A stretch of DNA of 63,563 nucleotides, filler included, from Candidatus Fermentibacterota bacterium (GCA_016928395.1; 5 parts of 5 records of this genome joined end to end with filler, not necessarily neighbours in it); one strand, 5' to 3'. Counted from the first letter of the whole stretch, positions 8,583 to 59,893 are shown. Made by a program: numbers and translations. The notes: a model not told the origin generated them from the letters alone.

Positions 8583-8682
8583 NNNNNNNNNNNNNNNNNN
8601 NNNNNNNNNNNNNNNNNNNNNNNNNNTTAATTAATTAANNNNNNNNNNNNNNNNNNNNNNNNNNNNNNNNNNNNNNNNNNNN
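8583..8682. other. Artificial contig linker
   Basis: N run + TTAATTAATTAA (stops in six frames) + N run, 100 nt. Confidence 0.99.
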
Positions 8683-9801
8683 GAGCGCGAGCACGCCTCT
8701 CGAAAGGCAGCGCAGGCCTCCCGGGTCTGGCGGAATCCACGGCTCATCATGGAGGACATCGCCGATCCTGCTCCCCTGCCCGATGAAGTGATCATCAAGG
8801 TCAAGACATGCGGCGTGTGCGGTTCAGACATTCACTGCGTCATGCCCGACTCCGAGGGCTATGTGCAGTTCAGCGGCCCTGCCCGCCTTCCCGTCATCCT
8901 TGGCCACGAGTATGCGGGCGAAGTCGTTGCTGCGGGAGATGATGTGCGCACCGTACGGGTCGGTGATCCGGTGGCTGCGGAAGGCATGCTGTGGTGCGGG
9001 CTGTGCGAATCGTGCCGGAGGGGGAGGCCCAATCAATGCGTGAACCTGGAGATGGTCGGGTTCTCAGCGCCGGGCGCCTTCGCCGAATACATCGCCACGA
9101 AGGAACGCTATTGCTGGAGCCTCCTTCCGCTCCTGGAATCCTTGGATCTCCCTGCATCGGGCGTTTTCGAGTTGGGCGCCCTGTTGGAGCCCGCGGGGTG
9201 CGCCTACAATGGGCTCTTCGTCGGCCATGAGTGTTTCAAGCCCGGAGTTCGAGTAGCCGTCTTCGGCGCCGGGCCCATCGGCCTGGCCGCCGTGGCGCTT
9301 GCCAGAGCTGCCGGCGCATCCCTGATCGTGGCCTTTGATCCCTCAGAAGACCGCCTGCGACTGGCTGGCGTCATGGGAGCGAATCGAACCTGCAGTCCCC
9401 ATGCCTCAGGCCAGCCCGACACATCCTTGGTTGAAGTGCTGATGGACCTTACTGGCGGCGAAGGAGTTGACATCATTGTGGAGGCCGCCGGCGCCGCAGA
9501 GGAGACCTTGCCGATCATGGAGCGAACCCTGGCTCCCAACGGCCGCATTGTGTACCTGGGGCGGACCGGCGCTCATGCCTCGGTAAACCTCGACCTCATG
9601 GTCAGCGGCGCCTCCGCTATCGCCGGGTCGCGGGGCCATGCGGGCCACGGCATCTACCCGAACCTTATCCGCATGGTCTCCGCGGGGCTTCTCCCCTTGG
9701 GCGCCATGGTCACCGCTCGCCATCCCTTCCCTCAGGTGGAAGCCGCCCTGCACGATGCCGGTGATCGGCGTCACGGCAAGGTGATGGTCGTGTCGGAATA
9801 G
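8683..9801 (+). CDS. iolM: Zn-dependent dehydrogenase, scyllo-inosose 3-dehydrogenase (IolM)-like, 5' truncated
   Basis: Frame open from contig start (SRVWRNPRL); CGVCGSD, GHEY, MLWCGLCESC..C, GAGPIG, GSRGHAGHGIYP resemble Thermotoga IolM as I recall it. Confidence 0.7.
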   Translation, partial: EREHASRKAAQASRVWRNPRLIMEDIADPAPLPDEVIIKVKTCGVCGSDIHCVMPDSEGYVQFSGPARLPVILGHEYAGEVVAAGDDVRTVRVGDPVAAEGMLWCGLCESCRRGRPNQCVNLEMVGFSAPGAFAEYIATKERYCWSLLPLLESLDLPASGVFELGALLEPAGCAYNGLFVGHECFKPGVRVAVFGAGPIGLAAVALARAAGASLIVAFDPSEDRLRLAGVMGANRTCSPHASGQPDTSLVEVLMDLTGGEGVDIIVEAAGAAEETLPIMERTLAPNGRIVYLGRTGAHASVNLDLMVSGASAIAGSRGHAGHGIYPNLIRMVSAGLLPLGAMVTARHPFPQVEAALHDAGDRRHGKVMVVSE

Positions 9802-9899
9802 CGGGGATGGAACAAGGGATGAAGGATGGGGGATCCGGCGGCAGTGCGCGGAGCCGCGATCGCGGACCACGGGCTGGTACAACGAGGATCCCAAACGCC

Positions 9900-10175
9900 G
9901 AGCGCAGCGAGCGTAGGAGGGCCTTCAGGCCCGACAGGACTGGCGTTAATCGGCGAATGCATCCTATGGAGTGCGGTGGCCTGGCTTGCGCACTCCAAAG
10001 CATCCAACCCAGCCGCCCCCTTCGCGCCTTACAGCGCTCCACAGCGCTCCAACATCGTGCGTGCACCGCATTCCCCGGCGTACTCTCAACCCCGAGAAAT
10101 CTGAGTGCGCCCGGCGTCCTCAGAGGCCGCACTGAATACTGAATCCTGAATCCTGAACCCCGAACCCTGAACCCC
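9900..10175 (+). repeat. Modular intergenic repeat, copy 1
   Basis: GTAGGAGGGCCTTCAGGCCCGA at 9913; CGGCGTACTCTCAACCCCGA..CTCAGAGGC module; CTGAA(T/C)C tandem; the same modules recur near 31.9, 38.8 and 57.1 kb. Confidence 0.75.
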
Positions 10176-10179
10176 TGGG

Positions 10180-11376
10180 CTACTCGACCTCCGCCAGGAT
10201 GCCGGTAAGATAGCGGCCCTCGGGATGCGCCGGCACGGAGGGATGATCGGCATCCGCGCTTAGTTCCCGAAGCACTCGGATCATTCGTCCCTTCTCGAGG
10301 GAAACCCCGGCTACCAGCCTCTCCAATTCCGCCGTGCCCAAGTGATGGGAGCAACTGAAGATCGCCAGCAGGCAATTCGGTGCGGCAACCCGTACCGACG
10401 CTCCAAGCTGCCATGACAGGCCCCGAAGCGCGGCGGCGACATTGACCTTGCGGCGGGCCATGGGCGGCGGGTCCATCACGATGATGTCATATCGGTCTGT
10501 CGCCGTGGCAAGGAAAGCGTCGACCTCGGCGCGAACCACTGTAGATCTGCCCGGGCCGACTGAATTGGAGGAGAGGTTCTGGTGCAGCAAATCGATGGTT
10601 GCCGACCCTGATTCCACGAAGGTGACATGAGCCGCGCCTCGGCCCAAGGCCGCCAGACCGAACCCGCCGGTGTGGGCGTACAAATCCAGCATACATCGGC
10701 CCTGCGCCCACTCGGAGACCAGTGCCCGGTTGACGCGTTGATCCAGATAGAAGCCCGTCTTCTGGCCGTTGCGCGCATCAACTACATAGACCACATCGTG
10801 CTCCACGATGCGCGGATGCGAATCATAGGATCCGGCGATCACCTCCTGCGACTGGCCAAGGCCTTCCCGTGCTCGGGCAGCCCGTTGGCTCCTATCCACC
10901 ACGGTGGATGCCGCAAGAGATTCCAGCGCAAACGAACATACAACCTCACGGTATCGCTCCACCCATGGATGGTGAAACTGAACCGATGCCGTCTCATCGT
11001 ACAGGTCCAGGACAAGACCGGGTAGGCCGTCGCCCTCGGCGTTCACGACCCGCACCCCGCCTGAGGCGCAGAGCCCCAGGCGTTGACGCAGCGACCACGC
11101 CCGCTGGAGCCGTTCTCGGAAGATGGCCTCATCGGGATACTCGTCGGTTCCGCGGGAGATGCACCGTGCACGGATTTGCGACTGCGCACTGAAGGCGGCC
11201 CAGGCAATGAAGGTGCCGTCGGCGCTCAGCACACTCACGATGTCGCCGGAGACGGGTGAGCCCTCTACCTCGGTGATGGCGCCGGCGAACACCCAGGGAT
11301 GTCCGTGCCGAACTGCAGCGGCTTTCATAGGGTGAAGCCGCAGTACCCCATCAGACTCTCGAACTCGATCACTCAC
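10180..11376 (-). CDS. rlmI: 23S rRNA m5C1962 methyltransferase RlmI-like
   Basis: PUA-like GHPWVF, EGDGLPGLVLD, GQKTGFYLDQR, LDLYAHTGGF, MDPPP, FSCS; GTG start after GGAGG. Confidence 0.85.
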   Translation of the reverse strand: MSDRVRESDGVLRLHPMKAAAVRHGHPWVFAGAITEVEGSPVSGDIVSVLSADGTFIAWAAFSAQSQIRARCISRGTDEYPDEAIFRERLQRAWSLRQRLGLCASGGVRVVNAEGDGLPGLVLDLYDETASVQFHHPWVERYREVVCSFALESLAASTVVDRSQRAARAREGLGQSQEVIAGSYDSHPRIVEHDVVYVVDARNGQKTGFYLDQRVNRALVSEWAQGRCMLDLYAHTGGFGLAALGRGAAHVTFVESGSATIDLLHQNLSSNSVGPGRSTVVRAEVDAFLATATDRYDIIVMDPPPMARRKVNVAAALRGLSWQLGASVRVAAPNCLLAIFSCSHHLGTAELERLVAGVSLEKGRMIRVLRELSADADHPSVPAHPEGRYLTGILAEVE

Positions 11377-40278: not shown

Positions 40279-40378
40279 NNNNNNNNNNNNNNNNNNNNNN
40301 NNNNNNNNNNNNNNNNNNNNNNTTAATTAATTAANNNNNNNNNNNNNNNNNNNNNNNNNNNNNNNNNNNNNNNNNNNN
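40279..40378. other. Artificial contig linker
   Basis: N/TTAATTAATTAA/N, 100 nt. Confidence 0.99.
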
Positions 40379-40600
40379 GCAGTAGGCTGTCAGCTAACGG
40401 GGCCATCTCCTCACTCCTCACCCCCATGTCAGAGCGAAGCGAAGCCGCATTCTCTCGCCACGGTGTGCCTTCGACCTGCGGTGGGGAACGTCTCACGCAA
40501 AGCCGCGAAGCACGCCAAGGGAGCGGCATGATTCACCATGAAGGGCACGAAGAGTGACGGAAGAATGGGCTGGGGAGCCTCATTCTTCCGTCACAGGGTG
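40379..40600 (+). repeat. Repeat mosaic (GAGCGAAGCGAAGC core, GTGACG..CAC hairpin)
   Basis: Shares GTCAGCTAACGGG.CCATCTCCTCACTCCT..CACCCCCATGTCAGAGCGAAGCGAAGCC with ~58137-58210, and the hairpin with 47335 and 49599. Confidence 0.8.
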
Positions 40601-40634
40601 CCCTTCCCGGCCTATGAGCCGGGCCTGCCTTGGA

Positions 40635-42677
40635 CTATCGCAGCACCATCACAGGTCGCACGCTTCGATCAGATCCGGAGACCAGTCGGCAGAAGTAAAC
40701 TCCGGAGGGGATCGATGAGGCGTCCCAGGATACGGTGTGATACCCGGCGGGAAGCGTCTTGTCGACCAAGGTCGTGATCTCCCTGCCTAGCGCATCCATC
40801 ACCACCAGGCGTACATGTCCCATGGTCGGAATACCATAGGAGAACATCGTCTCGGTGCCAAAGGGATTCGGGCTGTTTGGCAGCAGCACGCATGCCACCG
40901 GCAACGCCACATCCGGGTGACCATACGAGATCTCGGGCGTGTCGGTCGGGATGAGGCCGACATCGAGAATGTCGCCCTCGTTGATGGCCTCCGCGACATC
41001 CTTGGCCAGCTCATCGTTGGCCGTCTCGTCATCGGTGATGAGCTGCCAGCAGTACGTGATGGCCTGCGAAGCCGTGGCGCCGTCGTAGCTCACTGATGCG
41101 AACTGCGGCAGCTGCAGCGAGGTCACATTCAGCAGCAATGCCATCATCTGTCGCTTGGCCTTCTGCACCATCGGCACATTGCCGTCTGTATTGAGCAGAT
41201 CATATGCTGCCTGCAGGCTGTCCACGTGGTCCGCAGGCTGGTTGACCACGTAGACCCCCAACGGGTTCGCAGGGCTGTTGGTGAAGTGCATCGAGATGTC
41301 ACTCAAGTAGCCCGTGAAGTCAGCCTCGTCGATCTGCGCGGCGCCTCGTCCGGTGAGATAGACCTTGAGCTGATGCTTCCAGAAGCCCACCGAACGAGGA
41401 TCATATGCCAGGTCCATCGGGGTGAGGAAGAAGTCACACACAATATCCTCGCCTGCGATGGTCACGCCCTTCGATTCCGCATCGGCGACGTAGCCCAGAG
41501 GAGTGATGATGGAGACGGTGTAGTCGCCCCATGGCAGTTCAGAGAACGAATAGGCCCCAGACGCATCAGACTCTGTCATCCCGAGCTCTACACCTAACGC
41601 ATCGTGAAGCTCAACAGGAACCCCAGCGCGACCACCGGCAGAGCTCTTCACCGAGCCGGCAATCCTGCAGAACTGGGGAAGATCTTGATACCTCAGGATC
41701 TTGAATCCCGTGTTGTCAGCCACGTAGACAAGTTTATCCAAGACACAGAGATTCCTCATGTTCGTCCCGGGATTGTAGCGCGTGAGGTATTCACAATTCT
41801 GTGGATCAGAGATATCCACCACCCAGAGGCCACCGTAGTAATCACTCACATAGGCGATTTCATCCTCGACTTCGACGGAGACCGTTAAGTCCATTCCGGG
41901 TGGATTGAAGGAGCCGACTAACGACGGTGTTGCCGGGGCACTTACATCGAATATCACCAAACCTTCGGTCTTATCAGTCACATATGCGTGTGTGTCAACA
42001 ACCTCGACATCATACGCCACGAAACCTGTCGTGATGGTGGAGATGGTGGAAAGAGCAGAGGGGTTCGTGGCATCGACTATCCGAAGTCCCGCGTACCAGT
42101 CGCCGACGAAGACAAGACCATCTCGAGTGGCCACCCAGTGTGCGTTGTTCGTCGAGAGGCTGCCTACCTGAACGGGGTTTGAGGGGTCAGTCACATCAAT
42201 CGCTCGGAGCCCTCCGAACCCACTTCCGACGAAGGCTATCGTACCATCGACCACCACTCCCCTTGCCTCGTGAGGAGTGGGGATGTGACCCTCGAGCTTC
42301 AGGTCGGCAGGATCGGAGATGTCGAAAATCCACATGCCACCGGTATCATGGTGAAAACCATCAGTGACGAAGGCGAGGGTACCCTCGATGTCGATTTGGC
42401 TGGCCGCGAATGAAGGATCACTCCACCCATCGAGGAATACCGGATTGCTGGGATCTGACACATCATAGGCAAGAAGACCAGCCGCCTTTGCTCCCACGAA
42501 GGCGTAGGGGAATGCAACCTCCACAGCCATGGCGCCATCGGCCAGGAAGGCTTCGCCAAGAAGGACTAGCTCCGGAAGCACATCTCCTGTGGAGACCGAG
42601 GGGACTATGGTCGTGAGGAAGATCAGGACTACCGCAAGCACAGTTAGAAATCGTGGTCTATTCAGTGGCTCTCTCAT
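40635..42677 (-). CDS. Secreted LVIVD-repeat protein with Ig-like domain and FlgD/T9SS-type C-terminal domain
   Basis: Signal peptide; about eight G-L-x-I-x-D-V/I-S-D-P repeats; IAGSV..TESDASGAYSF; PNSPNPF..YGIP..GHVRLVV..GREI..SGVYFCRL; GGAG RBS. Confidence 0.88.
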   Translation of the reverse strand: MREPLNRPRFLTVLAVVLIFLTTIVPSVSTGDVLPELVLLGEAFLADGAMAVEVAFPYAFVGAKAAGLLAYDVSDPSNPVFLDGWSDPSFAASQIDIEGTLAFVTDGFHHDTGGMWIFDISDPADLKLEGHIPTPHEARGVVVDGTIAFVGSGFGGLRAIDVTDPSNPVQVGSLSTNNAHWVATRDGLVFVGDWYAGLRIVDATNPSALSTISTITTGFVAYDVEVVDTHAYVTDKTEGLVIFDVSAPATPSLVGSFNPPGMDLTVSVEVEDEIAYVSDYYGGLWVVDISDPQNCEYLTRYNPGTNMRNLCVLDKLVYVADNTGFKILRYQDLPQFCRIAGSVKSSAGGRAGVPVELHDALGVELGMTESDASGAYSFSELPWGDYTVSIITPLGYVADAESKGVTIAGEDIVCDFFLTPMDLAYDPRSVGFWKHQLKVYLTGRGAAQIDEADFTGYLSDISMHFTNSPANPLGVYVVNQPADHVDSLQAAYDLLNTDGNVPMVQKAKRQMMALLLNVTSLQLPQFASVSYDGATASQAITYCWQLITDDETANDELAKDVAEAINEGDILDVGLIPTDTPEISYGHPDVALPVACVLLPNSPNPFGTETMFSYGIPTMGHVRLVVMDALGREITTLVDKTLPAGYHTVSWDASSIPSGVYFCRLVSGSDRSVRPVMVLR

Positions 42678-43121
42678 TTGTCTTTCTCCATGTTGAGGGT
42701 GTTGCCTAATGGGAATAGCGAGGATCGACGCCCCGCTCCGCGGTGGGGAGCGGTTCCGTGTGGACAGTCGGCGGCACCCGAGGCGCATGTGATTCCTCCC
42801 TTCACTCATTAGGCCACCGTTGATGCACGGGAATTGGTTCGTGCAGTGGACCGTCGCGCGGCAAGGGCCTGCGCAACAGTGAGTCATCGTGTTTGATATC
42901 TCAAACGATCGGCAGGGGTCCATTGCTTATTCGAGATAGAAATGCGGTTGATACTGGGCCGCAGTTCGGGGAGTCCGGACCTGTTCGCAGAGAGGTGTTG
43001 TGTCGGGGCGATTGGCCAGACTCATGGATCTATCCACACTCTGGGCATCCACAGGAGTGGACACGGCGGCAGGCGAACCACCCCACTGAGGACATGTAAG
43101 CGATGGCCTTCGGGGGTTCTA

Positions 43122-45446
43122 CTATCTGTGGCTTTGCCGCCTAAGGTGCTTCGATCCATGGAGCACTTGGATGCGTCGCATCGAACGGTCGAAGGCTTCG
43201 GAGCGTGCATCCCACGTTATCACGTTGTTTCGCCTTGCCTTCTCGGACCAGACCTTGAAGGCATCGCACGCGTAGAAGTCGACCACATTGAGATCGGTAT
43301 CCAAGAAGTATCGGAAGACTGGCTCAGGCATTTTCCAGCCGGGTAGCCGCGCTGATATTTGAACAGAGAGAATAATCACGCCATTATGGTGCTCGACTCG
43401 AGCGTTGGTAGCATCGAGACGACTCATGCCGAGAGCTTCAGGGAGGCCGATCGGAGTGGGAAAGATGATGTAGTCCTGGTAGCCCGTAGCAGCATCGTCA
43501 GTCTCGTACATTGGACCTCGACCGCAGCCTCCTCTCGGATCGAGGACCACGACAACAGGTGAACGGCAAGGAACATTGGTACCCGTACAGATGAATTCCT
43601 CGTACCCATCCTGGTCTATGTCATACACCGCTGACTTCTCGGTACCGTTGCAAAAAAACGCCGACCCATGATGTCCAGGATTCCAGAAGCTGTGAAGGTG
43701 TTCCCCACTGGAGGATAGCACGGCAGTCTGACACACGCCCGTTGGTCGGTGATAACAGCTCACAGCGAGCCAATGATCTTGACAGGTTGGCCCTCGGAGG
43801 AGCACCACGCCACTGATCCCGAAATTGTCGGCGACATCCCACGGCAAGGGGCACTCGAGGTTATTCCCCGCCCTAAAACGCCAGAGTTCATTGCCGCGAG
43901 AGTCGAGGCAGAACAGCGTTCCGGGGACTGAATCTTCGACCGCGGTTCCATAGACTATCTCGGAACCTGCCAGCCCATCCACATCTATCAGTTTGCTGAA
44001 TCGGTTTGTGGTGTGGACGACTGGAAAACGCCGGATGCAGCGTCCCTTGCTATTGGAAAGCAGCATGTGCTGATGGTCCGGAGCCAGCCGCACTTCAGCT
44101 GGACGGGAATCCAGCCACCAAGCCAAGCGTGGAATGCTCCATGCAGCGGCAACCAACACGATGGCACACGCAAAGACTGTCATCAGCCTCCTCCCAGGTC
44201 GACCCTGACTCACGACAGCCATCAGACGCGTCGCGGGTCCACGCTTCTTGATCGTGACAAGGTGGTGCGAGCCGAGTGCATCTCGAATACTCCGCAAGGG
44301 ATAGCACTGCGTTTCGACACGAGACGACGCGAGCAGTCCACGGACAGCGGTTGACATCTCTTCATGCACTTCCGCAGGATAGGCGATCCCCCGTAGTCGC
44401 GAGGCAGCAACCCGTTCGACCTTCTCTCGGAGGCTGCCGACCGGCCGGATCTGTCCCTCCTCGTCCAAGTCACCCGTCCAGGCAATCTGCTGGCTGGGAC
44501 ACATCTGATGAGGAAGATTCAGTTGTTCCCCGAGAGCATTGGCTGCCACAAGCGCGACGGGAAGAAGGATCGATCTACCTTGGATTTCGGCTACCGCTTC
44601 CAGTCGCCCAAGGGTGAATGTGAATTCCAAGTGAGATCGGGCTCCCTCCTCGCCCGCCGAGGGACCGAGGAGGAGCAAGACATGCTCGACCGCGCGCCGG
44701 ATTGCAGCGTCCAAAGCATTAGGGATGCTTCCCCCTTGCGCGTTTCTGATCTGAATCATGATGGATGGCGTCTTGCGAGCCTTGCTCACCTTGAGATATG
44801 CCGACAGCTGAGTCAGATAGCCCTCGCGGTATCGAGCAGGTACGTCTGGCGTGTCCACGAGCACCGTCAGAAGTACGCCAACCGGAACATCATCCGGTCT
44901 CATCAGGTGATACGGCCACACCAACCGATCGTACCCGCCTTGATCCGATTGCCTCGAGTCAATCTCTCGGAGAGCGTCGAGTGTTCCGTCGAGATCATGC
45001 TCCGGGATGGGCACATCCGGGACCAGCCTACTCATGATCCCTTTTGCAGCAGACCAATCTGCACGGATGACGTGCTCAGCAGCCTGAAGGACACGCAATC
45101 TCCCAAGTGCACAGGACAACGTTGTGATACTCCGGCCAGCATCAGTGGATAGATGAGTCTCGATTGTCTGTAGAACATCTGCGAGGAACCCGAGATGCCC
45201 GGAAATCGGAACTGGTCCAAGAGTGAGGTCGCACAGACGAGTCAGCGTATCAACGTGGTAGAACAACACGGATGGCAACTCAGCGAGAGGCGGAAGGGAC
45301 TTCAGATGATCGAGGAGCCGCACTGCGGCTTGCTTCCTTGTGAGAACAGGCAGAGTGATGAGCAGTTCGCTGTGGCGACCGTCGATCAGCGGAAGAGAGT
45401 GCCCCCGGTCGTTAGCCATCACTGCTATTGTGTCAGGAAGCCACAC
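43122..45446 (-). CDS. Single-pass membrane protein: N-terminal helical region + Lon/S16-type protease domain + TM + FG-GAP-like C-terminal domain
   Basis: IQGRSILLPVALVAA..IAWTGDLDEEGQIRPVGSLREKVE..LRGIAYP matches Lon_C (putative S292/K342); hydrophobic residues ~421-445; IDVDG..EIVYGT and YDIDQDGYEEFI repeats. Confidence 0.78.
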   Translation of the reverse strand: MWLPDTIAVMANDRGHSLPLIDGRHSELLITLPVLTRKQAAVRLLDHLKSLPPLAELPSVLFYHVDTLTRLCDLTLGPVPISGHLGFLADVLQTIETHLSTDAGRSITTLSCALGRLRVLQAAEHVIRADWSAAKGIMSRLVPDVPIPEHDLDGTLDALREIDSRQSDQGGYDRLVWPYHLMRPDDVPVGVLLTVLVDTPDVPARYREGYLTQLSAYLKVSKARKTPSIMIQIRNAQGGSIPNALDAAIRRAVEHVLLLLGPSAGEEGARSHLEFTFTLGRLEAVAEIQGRSILLPVALVAANALGEQLNLPHQMCPSQQIAWTGDLDEEGQIRPVGSLREKVERVAASRLRGIAYPAEVHEEMSTAVRGLLASSRVETQCYPLRSIRDALGSHHLVTIKKRGPATRLMAVVSQGRPGRRLMTVFACAIVLVAAAWSIPRLAWWLDSRPAEVRLAPDHQHMLLSNSKGRCIRRFPVVHTTNRFSKLIDVDGLAGSEIVYGTAVEDSVPGTLFCLDSRGNELWRFRAGNNLECPLPWDVADNFGISGVVLLRGPTCQDHWLAVSCYHRPTGVCQTAVLSSSGEHLHSFWNPGHHGSAFFCNGTEKSAVYDIDQDGYEEFICTGTNVPCRSPVVVVLDPRGGCGRGPMYETDDAATGYQDYIIFPTPIGLPEALGMSRLDATNARVEHHNGVIILSVQISARLPGWKMPEPVFRYFLDTDLNVVDFYACDAFKVWSEKARRNNVITWDARSEAFDRSMRRIQVLHGSKHLRRQSHR

Positions 45447-46353
45447 CTACGACGTATGCAGTCAAGGAGAATTCACGCGCTTCAGTGTCCTCATCTGACA
45501 CCCATCCGATCCCTCCCGCGTCAACAGAGATAAGCTCTTCACGCGAGCCATGAGAAACATAGGCGCGCAAGCTGCACTTGGGATGTCTCGTAGTCATGTC
45601 GCTGAGATCGAGTCTATAGCGTCTTCCAGCGGCAGTTTCGATCAGCGAGACGATGAGTTTGTATCCCTGGCGAGAGGTGATGGTCACTGCCCCTTCTGCG
45701 ACCAGCGAATCATGGAGAGCACGAGGTTGGAGGTGGAAATGTGCATCACCGTGGAAGAGGACCACGGACGTATCCGCGGGGGACAAGGCGGGCGCATCTT
45801 CGACGATTAGGCAGCCCTTCACGTCGGGCCTGCCCTCGTAGTAGAACCCCACTTTCGGATTCGAGATCACCAAAATGCTCTCGCCCAGCCATGGCACGTC
45901 CTCTCCAATGAGGTACAGCCGCACCTGGCCAGACCAGGCTTGCCGAAGCGAGCGCAGCAGAATCGATCCATCTTCGGAGACGAAAGCATCGATGTCGCCC
46001 TCGCCACCAGTGTCTGCTGCCAAAGCGCGTGGCGCTGTGATTGGCGTCATCGGTTGATGTCGGGGGTAGAACCTGACGACATTAGAGGCAGAAGGAGATA
46101 CGCGTCGCGCCAGCACCCGTTGCCATAGATCCGGTCGGTCTTCCACCTCCGCACTTTTGCGATGCGCAACTCGCACACAATCGACGAGGATGTCACAGCA
46201 GTACTGGCACTCCGAGAAGTGCCCCTCAAGCACGGACCGGAGTTCATCCGAAATCGCTCCCGAGAGGTATGAGGCGAGCAGCATTTCGTCGGGGCACGAG
46301 ATCGGCGGATTCTCAAGCATTGCAGCGCTCCATATGAGTTCGCGTCTTGGCAT
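45433..46353 (-). CDS. Soluble zinc-finger (zf-HC2/ZAS) anti-sigma factor-like protein
   Basis: CPDEMLLASYLSG.IS..LRS.LEGHFSECQYC (HxxxCxxC); no hydrophobic TM; directly downstream of the ECF sigma gene. Confidence 0.82.
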   Translation of the reverse strand: MPRRELIWSAAMLENPPISCPDEMLLASYLSGAISDELRSVLEGHFSECQYCCDILVDCVRVAHRKSAEVEDRPDLWQRVLARRVSPSASNVVRFYPRHQPMTPITAPRALAADTGGEGDIDAFVSEDGSILLRSLRQAWSGQVRLYLIGEDVPWLGESILVISNPKVGFYYEGRPDVKGCLIVEDAPALSPADTSVVLFHGDAHFHLQPRALHDSLVAEGAVTITSRQGYKLIVSLIETAAGRRYRLDLSDMTTRHPKCSLRAYVSHGSREELISVDAGGIGWVSDEDTEAREFSLTAYVVGVAS

Positions 46354-46397
46354 TCACAAGACTCAGCCCTCGTTCAATGCCGCAAGCATGCGACCGC

Positions 46398-47036
46398 TTA
46401 CTCCAGGGCATTTCCGGGGCCCTCGCATGAACAACGGCTAAGGCTCTCGTTTTGCTGGAGAGCACTGCGCATTTTCACCTTGGCCTGTGCTATCGAGGAC
46501 GATACCGCTCCGATTGTGACTCGCGCCAACTCTGCGATTTCGCGATACTTCAGACCGCCAAAGTAGAATAGCCGCACGTAGTAGCGTTCCCTTTCGGAGA
46601 GGCAGCCGAGAGCCGCATTGAGGGATTCCTCCGTGCAGATGGCCTCCAGAGGATCCAGTTCCATGTGTCCTTCAGAGGAAGCGGCCAGGCCTGGCGCACC
46701 CCGTATGTAGGGCGACGCGTCACCAATCGGGATGACAAAACGATCATGTCTGAGGTGATCGCGATAGAGGTTTCTGGCGATGATGAGGAGCCACCATCGG
46801 AATTGGTGATCCGAGGCAAAAGCGGCATCCCTGATTCGTTGGCCGTTCTTGGCCATCAACCGGCAGAAGAGCTCGATGAGAATGTCATCCGCAGTGTCGG
46901 GGTCAGCGCCTGATTGCCGAAGAAAACCCGTGATCGTTCCAGAGTGCTCAACAAAAAGCCTGTGCCACGCTTCTACATCGCCCTCGATGCACCTCTGGAG
47001 TATTGAGAGAATCGGGTTTCCTCGTTGTTCGCTCAA
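46398..47036 (-). CDS. ECF-type RNA polymerase sigma factor
   Basis: GDVEAW..LF, ADDILIELF, FRWWLLIIARNLYRDHLR (region 2); LSERER..L.Y..GLKYREIAE..IGAVSSSI..AK.KMR (region 4). Confidence 0.92.
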   Translation of the reverse strand: MSEQRGNPILSILQRCIEGDVEAWHRLFVEHSGTITGFLRQSGADPDTADDILIELFCRLMAKNGQRIRDAAFASDHQFRWWLLIIARNLYRDHLRHDRFVIPIGDASPYIRGAPGLAASSEGHMELDPLEAICTEESLNAALGCLSERERYYVRLFYFGGLKYREIAELARVTIGAVSSSIAQAKVKMRSALQQNESLSRCSCEGPGNALE

Positions 47037-47261
47037 GGGCCAATCCTATGCACGTTGGCAAAATGTAAGCTTGCTATGGCTGAACGGGGCGTATCGGGAG
47101 CGTGACGGCGGTAATCTTTCGAGCTCCAGAGACGAGTTGACTCCACGAGCATCGTCTTCCCCCATGGGACGCGGCAGTGGCCGCGACGTAAGAACCACGC
47201 GGTGGTGTGTGCGGAAGTGTAGCGCGCGGGGGGCGGGAATGCAAGCGCGGTGGGGAAGCAG

Positions 47262-47420
47262 GGTTCACCACCAAGACACGAAGGACACCAAGGAAGCAAG
47301 AACTTCACCATGAAGAACATGAAGGGCATGAAGAGTGACGAGAGAATGAAACGATGTCCTGCATTCTCTCGCCACAGGTGTGCCTTGCCCTGCGGGGCGG
47401 GGGACCAGTCGGCAGTAGGG
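47262..47420 (+). repeat. Repeat mosaic (ACACGAAGG/CATGAAG nonamers, hairpin, GGCAGT tail)
   Basis: GAGTGACGAGAGAATG..CCTGCATTCTCTCGCCAC..GCCTTGCCCTGCGGGGCGGGG..CAGTCGGCAGTAGG also occurs at ~49597-49680. Confidence 0.82.
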
Positions 47421-47485
47421 ACAATGGAGGGTCAGACATCGCACTATTGCATTCTCCGGGACCAGAGGGAAGACAGCCTGCAAGG

Positions 47486-47704
47486 TCAATCGACCTTCTC
47501 GCCACACTGCCGCCCCTCGGCGTCATACTCGCCCGTGGATTCGCGGACTTTGCGGGTGGGCGGCATCTCCTCCACCACCTTCCCATCACGCCAGATGACA
47601 AGGGGTCTGCCTCGGCGACGATGTTCTTCTATCACCCCGTCCACGGCCGCACGCATTGCGGCCATCGCCTTCTCAGTCAGTGTGTCTTCCTTCTTGTGCG
47701 TCAT
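47486..47704 (-). CDS. Small protein coupled to the zeta-like ATPase (putative antitoxin/partner)
   Basis: ATGA overlap with the upstream gene, GGAGG RBS, sequence AV..VIEEHRRRGRPLVIWRDGKVV. Confidence 0.7.
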   Translation of the reverse strand: MTHKKEDTLTEKAMAAMRAAVDGVIEEHRRRGRPLVIWRDGKVVEEMPPTRKVRESTGEYDAEGRQCGEKVD

Positions 47705-48282
47705 CGGTGTCCTCCGGCTGTCGCGATGATCCTATCATAGAGACGTCGATCGATAATCGTCACCTCACCTTGTTCCTCGTGAAAGACCATTCTTGGCTCA
47801 GCCGTAGAATTGTCAAAGAAATGCAGGGAATCAAGTTCTTTGCGATAGACACAGAACAGGTTTCTGAGGCTGCGGCTGTAACGCCTCCGTACGTCCGTTT
47901 CCGGCACATCGTGGCCACCCTGGTCGACCCGGTCCCTGATTCGCGCCACCGCCATCTCAGCACTGGGTATCCAGAGATAGAACATGTGTGCCCGATACCC
48001 CGTCACACGAATGGACCGGATGAGGTTGAGATGCGTGCGGCCCGAGAGCGTCGTCTCGAACGCAAAATCATCCCGGCGCCGGACGGATTCCGCAATCTCC
48101 TCAAGAACGAGGCGCCCTGCCTTCACTATCGCCCTGCTTGGGTCGAAAGGAGATAGCCCACCTGCGATGAGATCAGGATTGATGAAATTCAGGCAATGCG
48201 CGTACCTGGGCAGAAATTCCCGCGCGAACGTAGTCTTGCCGGCTCCGTTCGACCCTGCGACGATATGGCACTCAAGCACCAC
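47701..48282 (-). CDS. Zeta-toxin-like / AAA_33 P-loop protein
   Basis: IVAGSNGAGKTTFAREFLP, FINPDLIAGGLSP, FAFETTLSG, RIRDRVDQGGHDVPE..VRRRY, FFDNS. Confidence 0.88.
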   Translation of the reverse strand: MVLECHIVAGSNGAGKTTFAREFLPRYAHCLNFINPDLIAGGLSPFDPSRAIVKAGRLVLEEIAESVRRRDDFAFETTLSGRTHLNLIRSIRVTGYRAHMFYLWIPSAEMAVARIRDRVDQGGHDVPETDVRRRYSRSLRNLFCVYRKELDSLHFFDNSTAEPRMVFHEEQGEVTIIDRRLYDRIIATAGGHR

Positions 48283-48486
48283 TCACCACCCGAGGAAGCA
48301 GGGTTTGAGCACCTTGGGGACGTACATGAAATCAGTACTTTCCGCCCTCGCCGCGGCCAACGGCCGCCTCGCCGACCACAAGTGCAGCGTACTCGGATGT
48401 CCATGCCGTATCGACTTCTCCCTCGCACTCGCCGCATTGATCGCATCCAACGGCAACGCCACCTCAATGAGCTTCCTGTGGTTCAC
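48283..48486 (-). pseudogene. N-terminal fragment of a DUF1156 (DNA methylase-associated) gene
   Basis: [45 protein letters not shown]; similarity stops after about 48 aa; AGGAG RBS. Confidence 0.8.
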
Positions 48487-48699
48487 TCTGTCTCCTGGGT
48501 TTGGCATGCGGCATACCCGATCCATTCTCGGGCATCGGCCGGTTGGGCCCGGCTCTCTAATGCCACGCGAGAAGCGGATCGCTTGTGGATCATCTGACGC
48601 AGGCTGAGGCATATCAGACGATTGCCGGACGATTCCGGCGTGCGTGGTGATGAGCCGCATCGATGGATTAGACCAAGTCGTCGATGGATTGTCGATGGA

Positions 48700-48834
48700 T
48701 TACGCATGGTTACCTGCAGAAACGTACCTGGTGCTTCGACCGCTTCCAACCGGCTCAATCAAACCTAAGTCTACCAAACCTTGAAGGTCTCGGTACGCAG
48801 TGTTGTGGTCAACGAGTAGGGTCAAGTATTGCAT
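48700..48834 (-). pseudogene. C-terminal winged-HTH remnant of a Fic/AlbA-type gene
   Basis: Manual translation MQYLTLLVDHNTAYRDLQGLVDLGLIEPVGSGRSTRYVSAGNHA* (below the ORF-track cut-off). Confidence 0.6.
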
Positions 48835-49181
48835 TGTGGGATTTGGATGGGCGGATTGAGCAGCACGAATCGCCGCGCCTGCAGGCGCGTGCCTTGTATG
48901 GAGAAGCCAATGTGGAGCGGAATCCGGTCGAGTCCATCGCTGCCCCAGGGTGAAGGCTCTCTATCGAGTAAGGAAATAGGAGTAAGGAGTGAGGAGATGA
49001 AGAGGTCAAGGGGTGAAGAGGTGAAGGGGGAAAGAGGGCCGGAGTGAACCCTGAACCCTTGACCTTGGCAGAGAGCTGATAGCTGAGAGCTGCCGCGCAG
49101 CGGCAACCGTGCCCACTCCAGGGCGCAGATTCTCGTTAGACAACTTCGGAACCGGCGCCGGGGATTCCCCGTAGCTCGACA

Positions 49182-49277
49182 TTTCACCAACGTGCCTAAA
49201 CCGCTTCAACCCTACACCACAACCGTGGCTTCATGCGGTCTTCTCTTCTACTCGTGGAACTAGGGACGTTGGTAAAA
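49182..49277. repeat. 96-bp imperfect inverted repeat, attC-like ends
   Basis: TTTCACCAACGTGCCTA...TAGGGACGTTGGTAAAA, 15 of 17 positions complementary. Confidence 0.45.
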
Positions 49278-49310
49278 TGGTAAGTTACCGATCGAGTATG
49301 GCCCCCGAAG

Positions 49311-49338
49311 CCCACTATTCTAAGGTTAGAATAGTGGG
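49311..49338. promoter_or_regulatory. Perfect palindrome with 13-bp arms (operator-like)
   Basis: CCCACTATTCTAA-GG-TTAGAATAGTGGG. Confidence 0.55.
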
Positions 49339-49405
49339 TAAATACGGCCCGGCGGGCCATGGAAGGGCATGGGATGTGGGATGAGAGTGCGGGCATGCTT
49401 CCCCC

Positions 49406-49492
49406 TGGGAATGCGGAGCAACCCCACGCGACGGCACTACGCCGTCACCACAGCAGGGCAAACGGTATGGCGGGAGGAGGGGGAAGTCAAGA
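49406..49492 (-). repeat. 87-bp repeat at contig end carrying a sigma70-like promoter
   Basis: Identical to 59707-59793; minus strand reads TTGACT-N17-TACCGT. Confidence 0.85.
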
Positions 49493-49592
49493 NNNNNNNN
49501 NNNNNNNNNNNNNNNNNNNNNNNNNNNNNNNNNNNNTTAATTAATTAANNNNNNNNNNNNNNNNNNNNNNNNNNNNNNNNNNNNNNNNNNNN
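49493..49592. other. Artificial contig linker
   Basis: N/TTAATTAATTAA/N, 100 nt. Confidence 0.99.
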
Positions 49593-59793: not shown

Positions 59794-59893
59794 NNNNNNN
59801 NNNNNNNNNNNNNNNNNNNNNNNNNNNNNNNNNNNNNTTAATTAATTAANNNNNNNNNNNNNNNNNNNNNNNNNNNNNNNNNNNNNNNNNNNN
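59794..59893. other. Artificial contig linker
   Basis: N/TTAATTAATTAA/N, 100 nt. Confidence 0.99.

Follow-up and report, generated by a model that had tools for sequence, protein, structure and literature searches.

In the route represented by RseA with DegS and RseP (and also by RsiV and RsiP), an outside signal leads to proteolysis of a membrane anti-sigma factor and, through it, to release of a sigma factor of the extracytoplasmic function (ECF) type; RsrA is an example of a soluble, zinc-binding anti-sigma factor (ZAS). Here we describe a three-gene locus found in a stretch of DNA of 63,563 nucleotides from Candidatus Fermentibacterota bacterium (GCA_016928395.1; the whole stretch is called the window below). 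The locus encodes an ECF sigma factor, a soluble 306-residue protein that is likely an anti-sigma factor of the ZAS kind, and a 774-residue one-pass membrane protein in which a Lon-type (S16) protease domain, free of any AAA+ module, is joined to a transmembrane (TM) helix and a beta-propeller region.

A protease of related layout has been described in type III CRISPR signaling. CalpL begins with a helical bundle, which is followed by a Lon domain (dyad S152-K193) and a SAVED domain, and has no AAA+ module (10.1101/2024.05.08.593097, 10.1101/2021.12.06.471393). After filament formation driven by cA4 it cuts the soluble anti-sigma factor CalpT, which carries MazF-like and DUF2080 domains, in trans, and the ECF-like factor CalpS is freed after further degradation of CalpT (10.1101/2024.05.08.593097). 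The calpT gene is located directly upstream of calpL, and in CalpL a Ser, three positions before the catalytic Ser, replaces an Asp that autoinhibits other Lon proteases (10.1101/2021.12.06.471393).

A Lon-type protease domain joined to a transmembrane helix and a propeller

The locus lies on a 9114-bp piece of the window (40379-49492), where three co-oriented minus-strand open reading frames (ORFs) of 212, 306 and 774 amino acids nearly touch one another. An initial, sequence-only reading of the window had described this close packing, and it was recovered at the same coordinates: the gap between the sigma gene and the gene for the 306-residue protein is 44 bp, and the latter gene either overlaps that of the 774-residue protein by 14 nt (if GTG at 45446 is the start codon) or is separated from it by 13 nt (if ATG at 45419, corresponding to M10, is the start). 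No second copy of the three-gene cassette is present in the window. No RNA run is listed as containing the stretch, and one DNA run, probably that of the source sample, contains it. The 774-residue protein is organized as follows:

43122..45446, minus strand: 774-residue protein that crosses the membrane once (from the N-terminus: helical domain, domain of the Lon protease type, TM helix and propeller)
44937..45395, minus strand: N-terminal all-helical domain, residues 18-170 (AlphaFold2 model, pLDDT 92.2)
44241..44909, minus strand: residues 180-402, with the fold of a Lon (S16) proteolytic domain
44571..44573, minus strand: codon of Ser292, predicted catalytic serine, aligned with the Ser of DGPSAG in canonical LonA
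44421..44423, minus strand: codon of Lys342, predicted catalytic lysine, aligned with the second Lys of KEK in canonical LonA
44118..44186, minus strand: single TM helix, residues 421-443 (19-residue Kyte-Doolittle maximum 2.18 at residue 421)
43125..44111, minus strand: predicted extracytoplasmic FG-GAP/VCBS-type beta-propeller region and C-terminal tail, residues 446-774

Taken alone, the 774-residue protein scored 12.7 bits against Pfam Lon_C (below the cut-off of 21.1; E 0.092) and gave a weak match to LonB in the PDB (E 0.07). An exhaustive search returned 282 relatives at E <= 1e-3, including six full-length close relatives at 32-38% identity, and a family alignment was built from 30 relatives that are 15-38% identical to the window protein. 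Close orthologs include MBN1426088.1 (Ca. Fermentibacteria) and MCU0611253.1 (Ca. Eisenbacteria). Seven columns of that 30-sequence alignment are invariant (M1, G290, S292, G331, K342, S349 and P357). The corresponding profile matched the proteolytic domains of Lon structures in the PDB with E values of 2.1e-10 (A. fulgidus LonB, 1z0e), 2.5e-9 (LonC, 4fw9) and 9.3e-9 (E. coli Lon, 1rr9), and Pfam Lon_C matched 11 of the 30 family members at E <= 0.1 (best 8.9e-6). An AlphaFold2 model of residues 1-420, computed with the alignment, reached a pLDDT of 92.2 and a pTM of 0.89, and the top Foldseek matches to it were all Lon proteins, with E values down to 1.4e-10.

The predicted catalytic positions were assigned by aligning the profile of the cytoplasmic part with a canonical LonA (from genome G001); in the model, S292 is positioned just before a helix (residues 294-308) and K342 lies within another (339-347). 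A Lon-type domain is carried by 51 of 160 collected proteins, and exclusion of the window's own leaves 50 for the counts that follow. The serine is kept in 49 of these relatives (the sequence of the one exception, a fragment, begins beyond this position) and the lysine in all 50, while the column of T324 holds Thr in 42, Ser in seven and Ile in one. A Walker A pattern is absent from the window protein and was found in none of the 43 full-length relatives. We conclude, on solid grounds, that this is a genuine Lon-type (S16) protease domain with a conserved Ser-Lys dyad and without an AAA+ module. The sequence-only reading had pointed out a Lon/S16-like segment with Ser292 and Lys342 and no visible Walker motif, and each of these points was borne out. 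Since the dyad is retained across the relatives and no full-length member has a Walker A pattern, the domain is most likely active as a protease, and would act without an ATPase.

Residues ~82-170 of the helical N-domain show a loose structural match to the LonA AAA+ module's small helical subdomain, with an rmsd of 5-6 Å over the longer alignments. Weak matches of residues 197-271 to TIR (SARM1), at E about 0.3, are located within the Lon fold and were set aside as noise.

A single TM stretch is found at about residues 421-443, in agreement with the one helix placed at ~421-445 by the sequence-only reading. Because Lys and Arg are more frequent on its N-terminal side (four in the 18 residues before it versus two in the 20 residues after it), we infer that the N-terminal part is cytoplasmic and the propeller outside, which is consistent with the topology first suggested. 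The DxD-type FG-GAP-like repeats of that reading hold for the family, in which 22 of the 30 aligned members match FG-GAP_3 at E <= 0.1, and are less evident in the window protein itself, which has one clean DxDxDG motif (DIDQDG at 609-614) and Pfam propeller matches that remain below threshold. The family profile matches the PL11 propellers YesW and YesX, as well as designed propellers, in the PDB; the matches to the designed 'Cake' and 'Scone' proteins merely reflect the repeated propeller blade.

The same combination of TM helix and propeller occurs in a widespread family of proteins of ~420-470 amino acids that have one TM helix and an N-terminal helix-turn-helix (HTH) motif resembling SWKEIA..L..S.RTVQRWE; HTH_17, MerR or HTH_23 matched the N-terminus of seven of ten such proteins that were scanned, in all cases below the Pfam cut-offs. 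Among 301 sampled Acidobacteriota genomes, 38 gave matches to the TM helix and propeller only, and one contained the full form with the Lon domain. This joining of one outside module to different cytoplasmic outputs fits a sensor role, and the 774-residue protein is likely a receptor. No sigma gene was detected by phmmer with the window sigma factor within ~1.5 kb on each side of the genes encoding only the TM helix and propeller.

Two further features of the propeller relatives were noted. Some of those with the TM helix and propeller carry a kinase-like or multi-TM N-terminal part instead. Some propeller proteins (P0019 and P0036) end in a DUF2510-like segment, and DUF2510 matches three of the 30 aligned members.

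In 43 full-length cluster representatives, a Lon domain that has the conserved dyad and no AAA+ module is fused to a TM helix and propeller, and this holds apart from any mechanism proposed below. It also corrects the annotation of a family whose public names are only 'VCBS repeat-containing protein' or 'hypothetical protein'.

The sigma factor and its candidate anti-sigma factor

The two genes upstream of the receptor gene, and the parts of the 306-residue protein, are as follows:

46398..47036, minus strand: ECF-type sigma-70 family factor, 212 amino acids, TTG start (TIGR02937, Sigma70_r4_2, Sigma70_r2)
45433..46353, minus strand: 306-residue soluble protein, likely a ZAS-like anti-sigma factor (helical N-terminal part, unstructured linker, beta-rich C-terminal part)
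46198..46221, minus strand: HxxxCxxC motif, H45/C49/C52 (translation HFSECQYC, residues 45-52)
46027..46098, minus strand: predicted unstructured linker, residues 86-109, between helix 74-85 and strand 110-114 of a low-confidence AlphaFold2 model; inferred candidate cleavage region
45448..46026, minus strand: beta-rich C-terminal part, residues 110-302, mostly strands (AlphaFold2 single-sequence model, pLDDT 45.6)

The 212-residue protein is an ECF sigma factor, as the sequence-only reading had it: it scores 63.9 bits against NCBIfam TIGR02937 (sigma70-ECF; cut-off 42.9) and 36.8 bits against Pfam Sigma70_r4_2 (cut-off 25.7; E 3.1e-9), and matches Pfam Sigma70_r2 with an E value of 9.2e-5.

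The gene for the 306-residue protein is located directly downstream of the sigma gene. Both properties first ascribed to this protein, the HxxxCxxC motif and the lack of a TM helix, were found again: a further cysteine (C20) precedes the motif, the highest 19-residue Kyte-Doolittle mean is 1.09, and no window reaches 1.6. The NCBIfam 'anti-sigma factor' model NF052375 gives a weak match to residues 25-94 (17 bits, where the cut-off is 100; E 0.0045), and the low-confidence AlphaFold2 model contains four helices within residues 23-85, the last of which is 74-85. Word-index searches of the databases for homologs returned only the protein itself, and PADLOC gave no match to it. Look-alikes in the ESM Atlas, which are leads only, include unnamed clusters of ~275 residues (scores 0.95 and 0.94) and one cluster (0.93) in which 35% of the members have zf-HC2. 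We consider the 306-residue protein likely to be a zinc-type (ZAS-like) anti-sigma factor, an assignment that is reasonable but soft.

Proposed mechanism and its alternatives

We propose that the 774-residue protein would act as a one-pass transmembrane receptor-protease, with its FG-GAP-type propeller facing outward and with a helical docking domain and the AAA-independent Lon-type Ser-Lys protease domain facing the cytoplasm. The 306-residue protein would hold the ECF sigma factor through its N-terminal zinc-type helical domain. An outside signal would change the state of the receptor, most likely by clustering; the Lon domain would then cut the 306-residue protein, its putative substrate, probably within the linker at residues ~86-109, and the sigma factor would be freed directly or after other proteases had removed the remnant. 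This complete chain is put forward tentatively, and we lean slightly against its being right in every step. If true, it would allow a signal to cross the membrane without intramembrane cleavage, a kinase or an ATPase, would extend the CalpL principle, site-specific Lon proteolysis gated by a sensor, from defense-related nucleotide sensing to the sensing of outside signals, and would give a function to a family so far named only for its repeats or not at all.

That the 306-residue protein is the substrate of the Lon-type domain is plausible, on thin evidence consisting of the tight packing of the genes, the parallels to the layout of CalpL, and one complex prediction. For the latter, residues 12-416 of the 774-residue protein (with alignment) were modeled against the 306-residue protein in three runs, together with three controls. 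The median score was 0.37 (runs 0.43, 0.25 and 0.37) versus 0.00 for the best control; contacts agreed between runs to at least 45%, and the pLDDT of the partner was at least 63. Of 80 solved complexes, 58 attain the mark set for this score, as do two of 110 mismatched pairs; passing scores of 0.60 or under account for only seven of those 80 complexes, and for both of the mismatches that pass. The tool itself cautions that a pass in this low range is wrong more often than it is right if the pairing was not already likely beforehand. Modeling of this pair, part of the sigma/anti-sigma/protease complex whose modeling the sequence-only reading had proposed as a check, separates it from its controls and lends its partnership weak support.

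The genomic surroundings of relatives bear on the same question. Profile searches with a three-sequence alignment returned one propeller-only locus in genome contigs and none in metagenome contigs, a search with an alignment of P0006 and P0007 returned five loci, all of them propeller-only, and a tblastn search of plasmids with residues 1-420 gave no match. Full-length distant relatives were found in 14 of 201 sampled genomes of one Acidobacteriota class (that of genome G258). In 12 of these 14 loci a same-strand ORF abuts or overlaps the start of the receptor gene; it is shortened in one further locus and absent from the remaining one, that of G258. The recurring feature is a small upstream gene in stop/start contact with the receptor gene. 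The ten distant loci compared over longer stretches (see below) are syntenic throughout and as such are not independent cases. In one example (locus L053) the two upstream genes are positioned as follows, in coordinates of that locus:

9669-10727, minus strand: gene for a ~350-residue protein
8954-9649, minus strand: gene for a ~230-residue protein

Both proteins are conserved, and neither belongs to a recognizable family. The ~350-residue protein is helical, and its look-alikes in the Atlas fall into clusters without a name, from Calditrichota, Ignavibacteriota and Bacteroidota; the ~230-residue protein ends in ..YE. Comparison of the latter with the C-terminal part of the 306-residue protein by hhalign gave a probability of 47% and an E value of 1.9e-4.

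A number of observations weigh against the proposed mechanism. The combination of sigma factor, 306-residue protein and receptor was seen on one 9.1-kb contig only. In all ten distant loci for which stretches of 11-17 kb were inspected, the gene order is instead ~350-residue protein, ~230-residue protein and receptor, all in one direction, and the G258 locus has neither of the two upstream genes. The conservation of the triad to which the sequence-only reading had looked was accordingly not seen among the distant relatives, the only ones to which this comparison applies: in none of the ten loci are the two upstream genes recognizable as a sigma/anti-sigma pair. The ~350-residue protein shows no likeness to the window sigma factor (hhalign E 0.76), no PDB match, and no Pfam or NCBIfam match of note. 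In a control hmmsearch with a profile of the ~230-residue protein against all 571 ORFs of the window, the 306-residue ORF ranked second with an E value of 0.14, which is not significant, and because of this result we treat the likeness of the two proteins as unproven. The softness of the anti-sigma assignment itself also counts here: nothing in Pfam, zf-HC2 included, matches the 306-residue protein at E <= 1, phmmer finds no PDB relatives at E <= 10, and its single-sequence AlphaFold2 model is poor (pLDDT 45.6). A protein of the ZAS type could, moreover, answer to redox or zinc with no protease involved. Finally, the region upstream of the operon and that upstream of the next gene, which encodes an LVIVD-repeat protein (described below), were not found to share an ECF-type promoter; the 36 bipartite words common to these two regions are chance-like in GC-rich DNA.

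Several of these points would be expected if the Lon-type receptor were active on something other than the 306-residue protein, such as itself, the sigma factor (in a shut-off loop) or another cytoplasmic or membrane protein. The receptor gene would then be part of the operon only because the sigma factor controls its expression, and ECF sigma factors commonly transcribe their own operons. The distant relatives, in which protease and propeller are retained while the genes upstream differ, the G258 locus with no partner genes at all, and the weak outcome of the complex prediction all point in this direction. We nonetheless regard this explanation as somewhat unlikely, given that the score of 0.37 stands against 0.00 for the controls and that the upstream gene overlaps or nearly contacts the receptor gene both here and in 12 of 14 distant loci, a stop/start contact that suggests a pair made together. 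That same packing of the 306-residue gene against the receptor gene also speaks against a self-sufficient zinc- or redox-sensing anti-sigma factor of the RsrA kind, for which the 774-residue protein would be an unrelated, envelope-linked protease that happens to be co-transcribed. Such an explanation would account for the HxxxCxxC motif with its upstream cysteine and for the solubility of the protein, but would leave its extra beta-rich part of ~200 residues without a known role, and many HxxxCxxC anti-sigma factors are not redox sensors. We judge it unlikely, even though the main text of one survey that reclassifies ECF sigma factors counts 10 ECF groups with soluble anti-sigma factors (PMC7826278).

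Each of these explanations leaves the Lon domain catalytic. The further possibility that the domain serves as a scaffold without catalysis, like those of RadA or ComM, and that the protein signals by binding only is highly improbable: the serine (49 of 50) and lysine (50 of 50) of the dyad are maintained at identities down to about 15%, whereas the active-site residues are reported to be missing from RadA (10.1101/2021.12.06.471393).

Returning to the proposed receptor-protease, a broader formulation would accommodate the distant loci as well. The protein might represent an unnamed class of one-pass receptor-proteases in which a propeller-controlled, clustering-gated and ATP-independent Lon domain cuts a cytosolic partner encoded directly upstream, and in which partner and output modules can be swapped: a zinc-type anti-sigma factor and ECF sigma factor in the lineage of the window, and the ~230- and ~350-residue proteins in the Acidobacteriota class. 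We consider this generalization, swappable modules included, doubtful. If it were true, it would constitute a third route from the envelope to an ECF sigma factor, beside intramembrane proteolysis and partner switching, and the logic of CalpL would not be confined to phage defense.

Neighboring genes and comparison with known systems

The window consists of separate contigs that have been joined, with spacers of N that appear as four pairs of 44-N runs:

8583-8682: contig join (pair of 44-N runs)
40279-40378: contig join (pair of 44-N runs)
49493-49592: contig join (pair of 44-N runs)
59794-59893: contig join (pair of 44-N runs)

Because of this concatenation, only genes within 40379-49492 count as known neighbors of the locus, and gene order across the joins is meaningless. 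The GC content of this piece is 0.556-0.58, versus ~0.60-0.64 in most other pieces of the window. Its remaining genes of interest are:

40635..42923, minus strand: LVIVD-repeat surface protein (LVIVD E 7.7e-34) with an SdrD_B-like domain and a type A sorting tail of the type IX secretion system; co-oriented with and downstream of the operon
47486-47704, minus strand: 72-residue ORF whose ATG overlaps the stop codon of the zeta-toxin-like gene (ATGA)
47701-48282, minus strand: zeta-toxin-like/AAA_33 P-loop protein, 193 amino acids, upstream of the operon (Zeta_toxin E 6.9e-8)
48283-48660, minus strand: 125-residue ORF, fragment of a DUF1156/HmaB-type DNA adenine methylase (PADLOC E 4.3e-25)

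The sorting tail of the LVIVD-repeat protein scores 29.4 bits against TIGR04183 (Por_Secre_tail; cut-off 23). A signal-peptide-like stretch at its residues 89-110 suggests a later start near M83, which would place the gene about 440 bp from the operon, and this gene is a possible target of the sigma factor. The zeta-toxin-like gene and the 72-residue ORF possibly form a toxin-antitoxin-like pair. The 125-residue ORF covers only about the first 50 residues of the ~970-residue DUF1156/HmaB profile and looks like a truncated remnant of a defense-system gene.

Full-text literature searches returned neither an account of a Lon domain joined to a TM helix and propeller nor an ECF group with a neighbor of that architecture. 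The main text of the survey cited above (PMC7826278), whose supplements may list gene neighborhoods, does not mention 'FG-GAP', 'VCBS' or Lon protease. The impression of the sequence-only reading that the architecture had not been described thus stands within these sources.

The known systems each share part of this arrangement. Canonical LonA, LonB and LonC (MEROPS S16) have the same proteolytic-domain fold, with the dyad in G-x-S and K motifs, but the 774-residue protein differs from them in having neither an AAA+ nucleotide-binding module nor a Walker A pattern, and in that its Lon domain is anchored in the membrane through a TM helix on its C-terminal side, behind which comes an outside domain. 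The HTH-TM-propeller proteins, which are unnamed, have a homologous TM helix and FG-GAP-type propeller, but their cytoplasmic part is a short helix-turn-helix rather than a helical and a Lon domain. Like the zinc-binding soluble anti-sigma factors, the 306-residue protein is soluble, has an HxxxCxxC motif and is encoded beside an ECF sigma factor; unlike them, it has an additional beta-rich C-terminal region of ~200 residues and no Pfam zf-HC2 match at E <= 1. The proposed pathway would resemble the RseA/DegS/RseP route in leading from an outside signal through anti-sigma proteolysis to release of an ECF sigma factor. It would differ in that the classical route needs a membrane anti-sigma factor, whereas the 306-residue candidate has no TM helix, and in that the proposed protease itself spans the membrane and would cut in the cytoplasm; no gene for a site-1 or site-2 protease is present on the 9.1-kb contig.

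The resemblance to CalpL, CalpT and CalpS is one of layout, as the sequence-only reading had suggested. The 774-residue protein starts with a helical domain, behind which lies a Lon domain that carries a Ser-Lys dyad but no AAA+ module; its candidate substrate, a soluble protein of ~300 residues, is encoded directly upstream; and an ECF-type sigma factor is part of the same gene cluster. The lack of an Asp at the position three residues ahead of the catalytic Ser is shared as well; across 51 sequences that column is mostly T or S, with Asp outside the eight commonest residues. On the other hand, the 306-residue protein has a helical N-terminal part with HxxxCxxC in place of the MazF-like and DUF2080 domains of CalpT, and no cas-like ORF was seen on the short 9.1-kb contig. 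The 774-residue protein has no SAVED or CARF domain (no Pfam or NCBIfam match), and has one TM helix and an outside propeller instead. The suggestion that an extracytoplasmic domain takes the place of SAVED is upheld in this descriptive sense, but not as an evolutionary replacement: the PADLOC model CARF_LON matches 11 of 30 family members (best E 3.9e-6) over the Lon part only (residues 287-389), generic Lon_C matches just as many, and by this measure the family appears no closer to CRISPR-Lon models than to Lon proteases in general. No CalpL structure is among the best 50 entries of the structural comparison or the best 60 rows of the profile search, which does not exclude a likeness. Taking these comparisons together, the architecture may be an apparently undescribed variant of the signal-fused, AAA-less Lon proteases such as CalpL.

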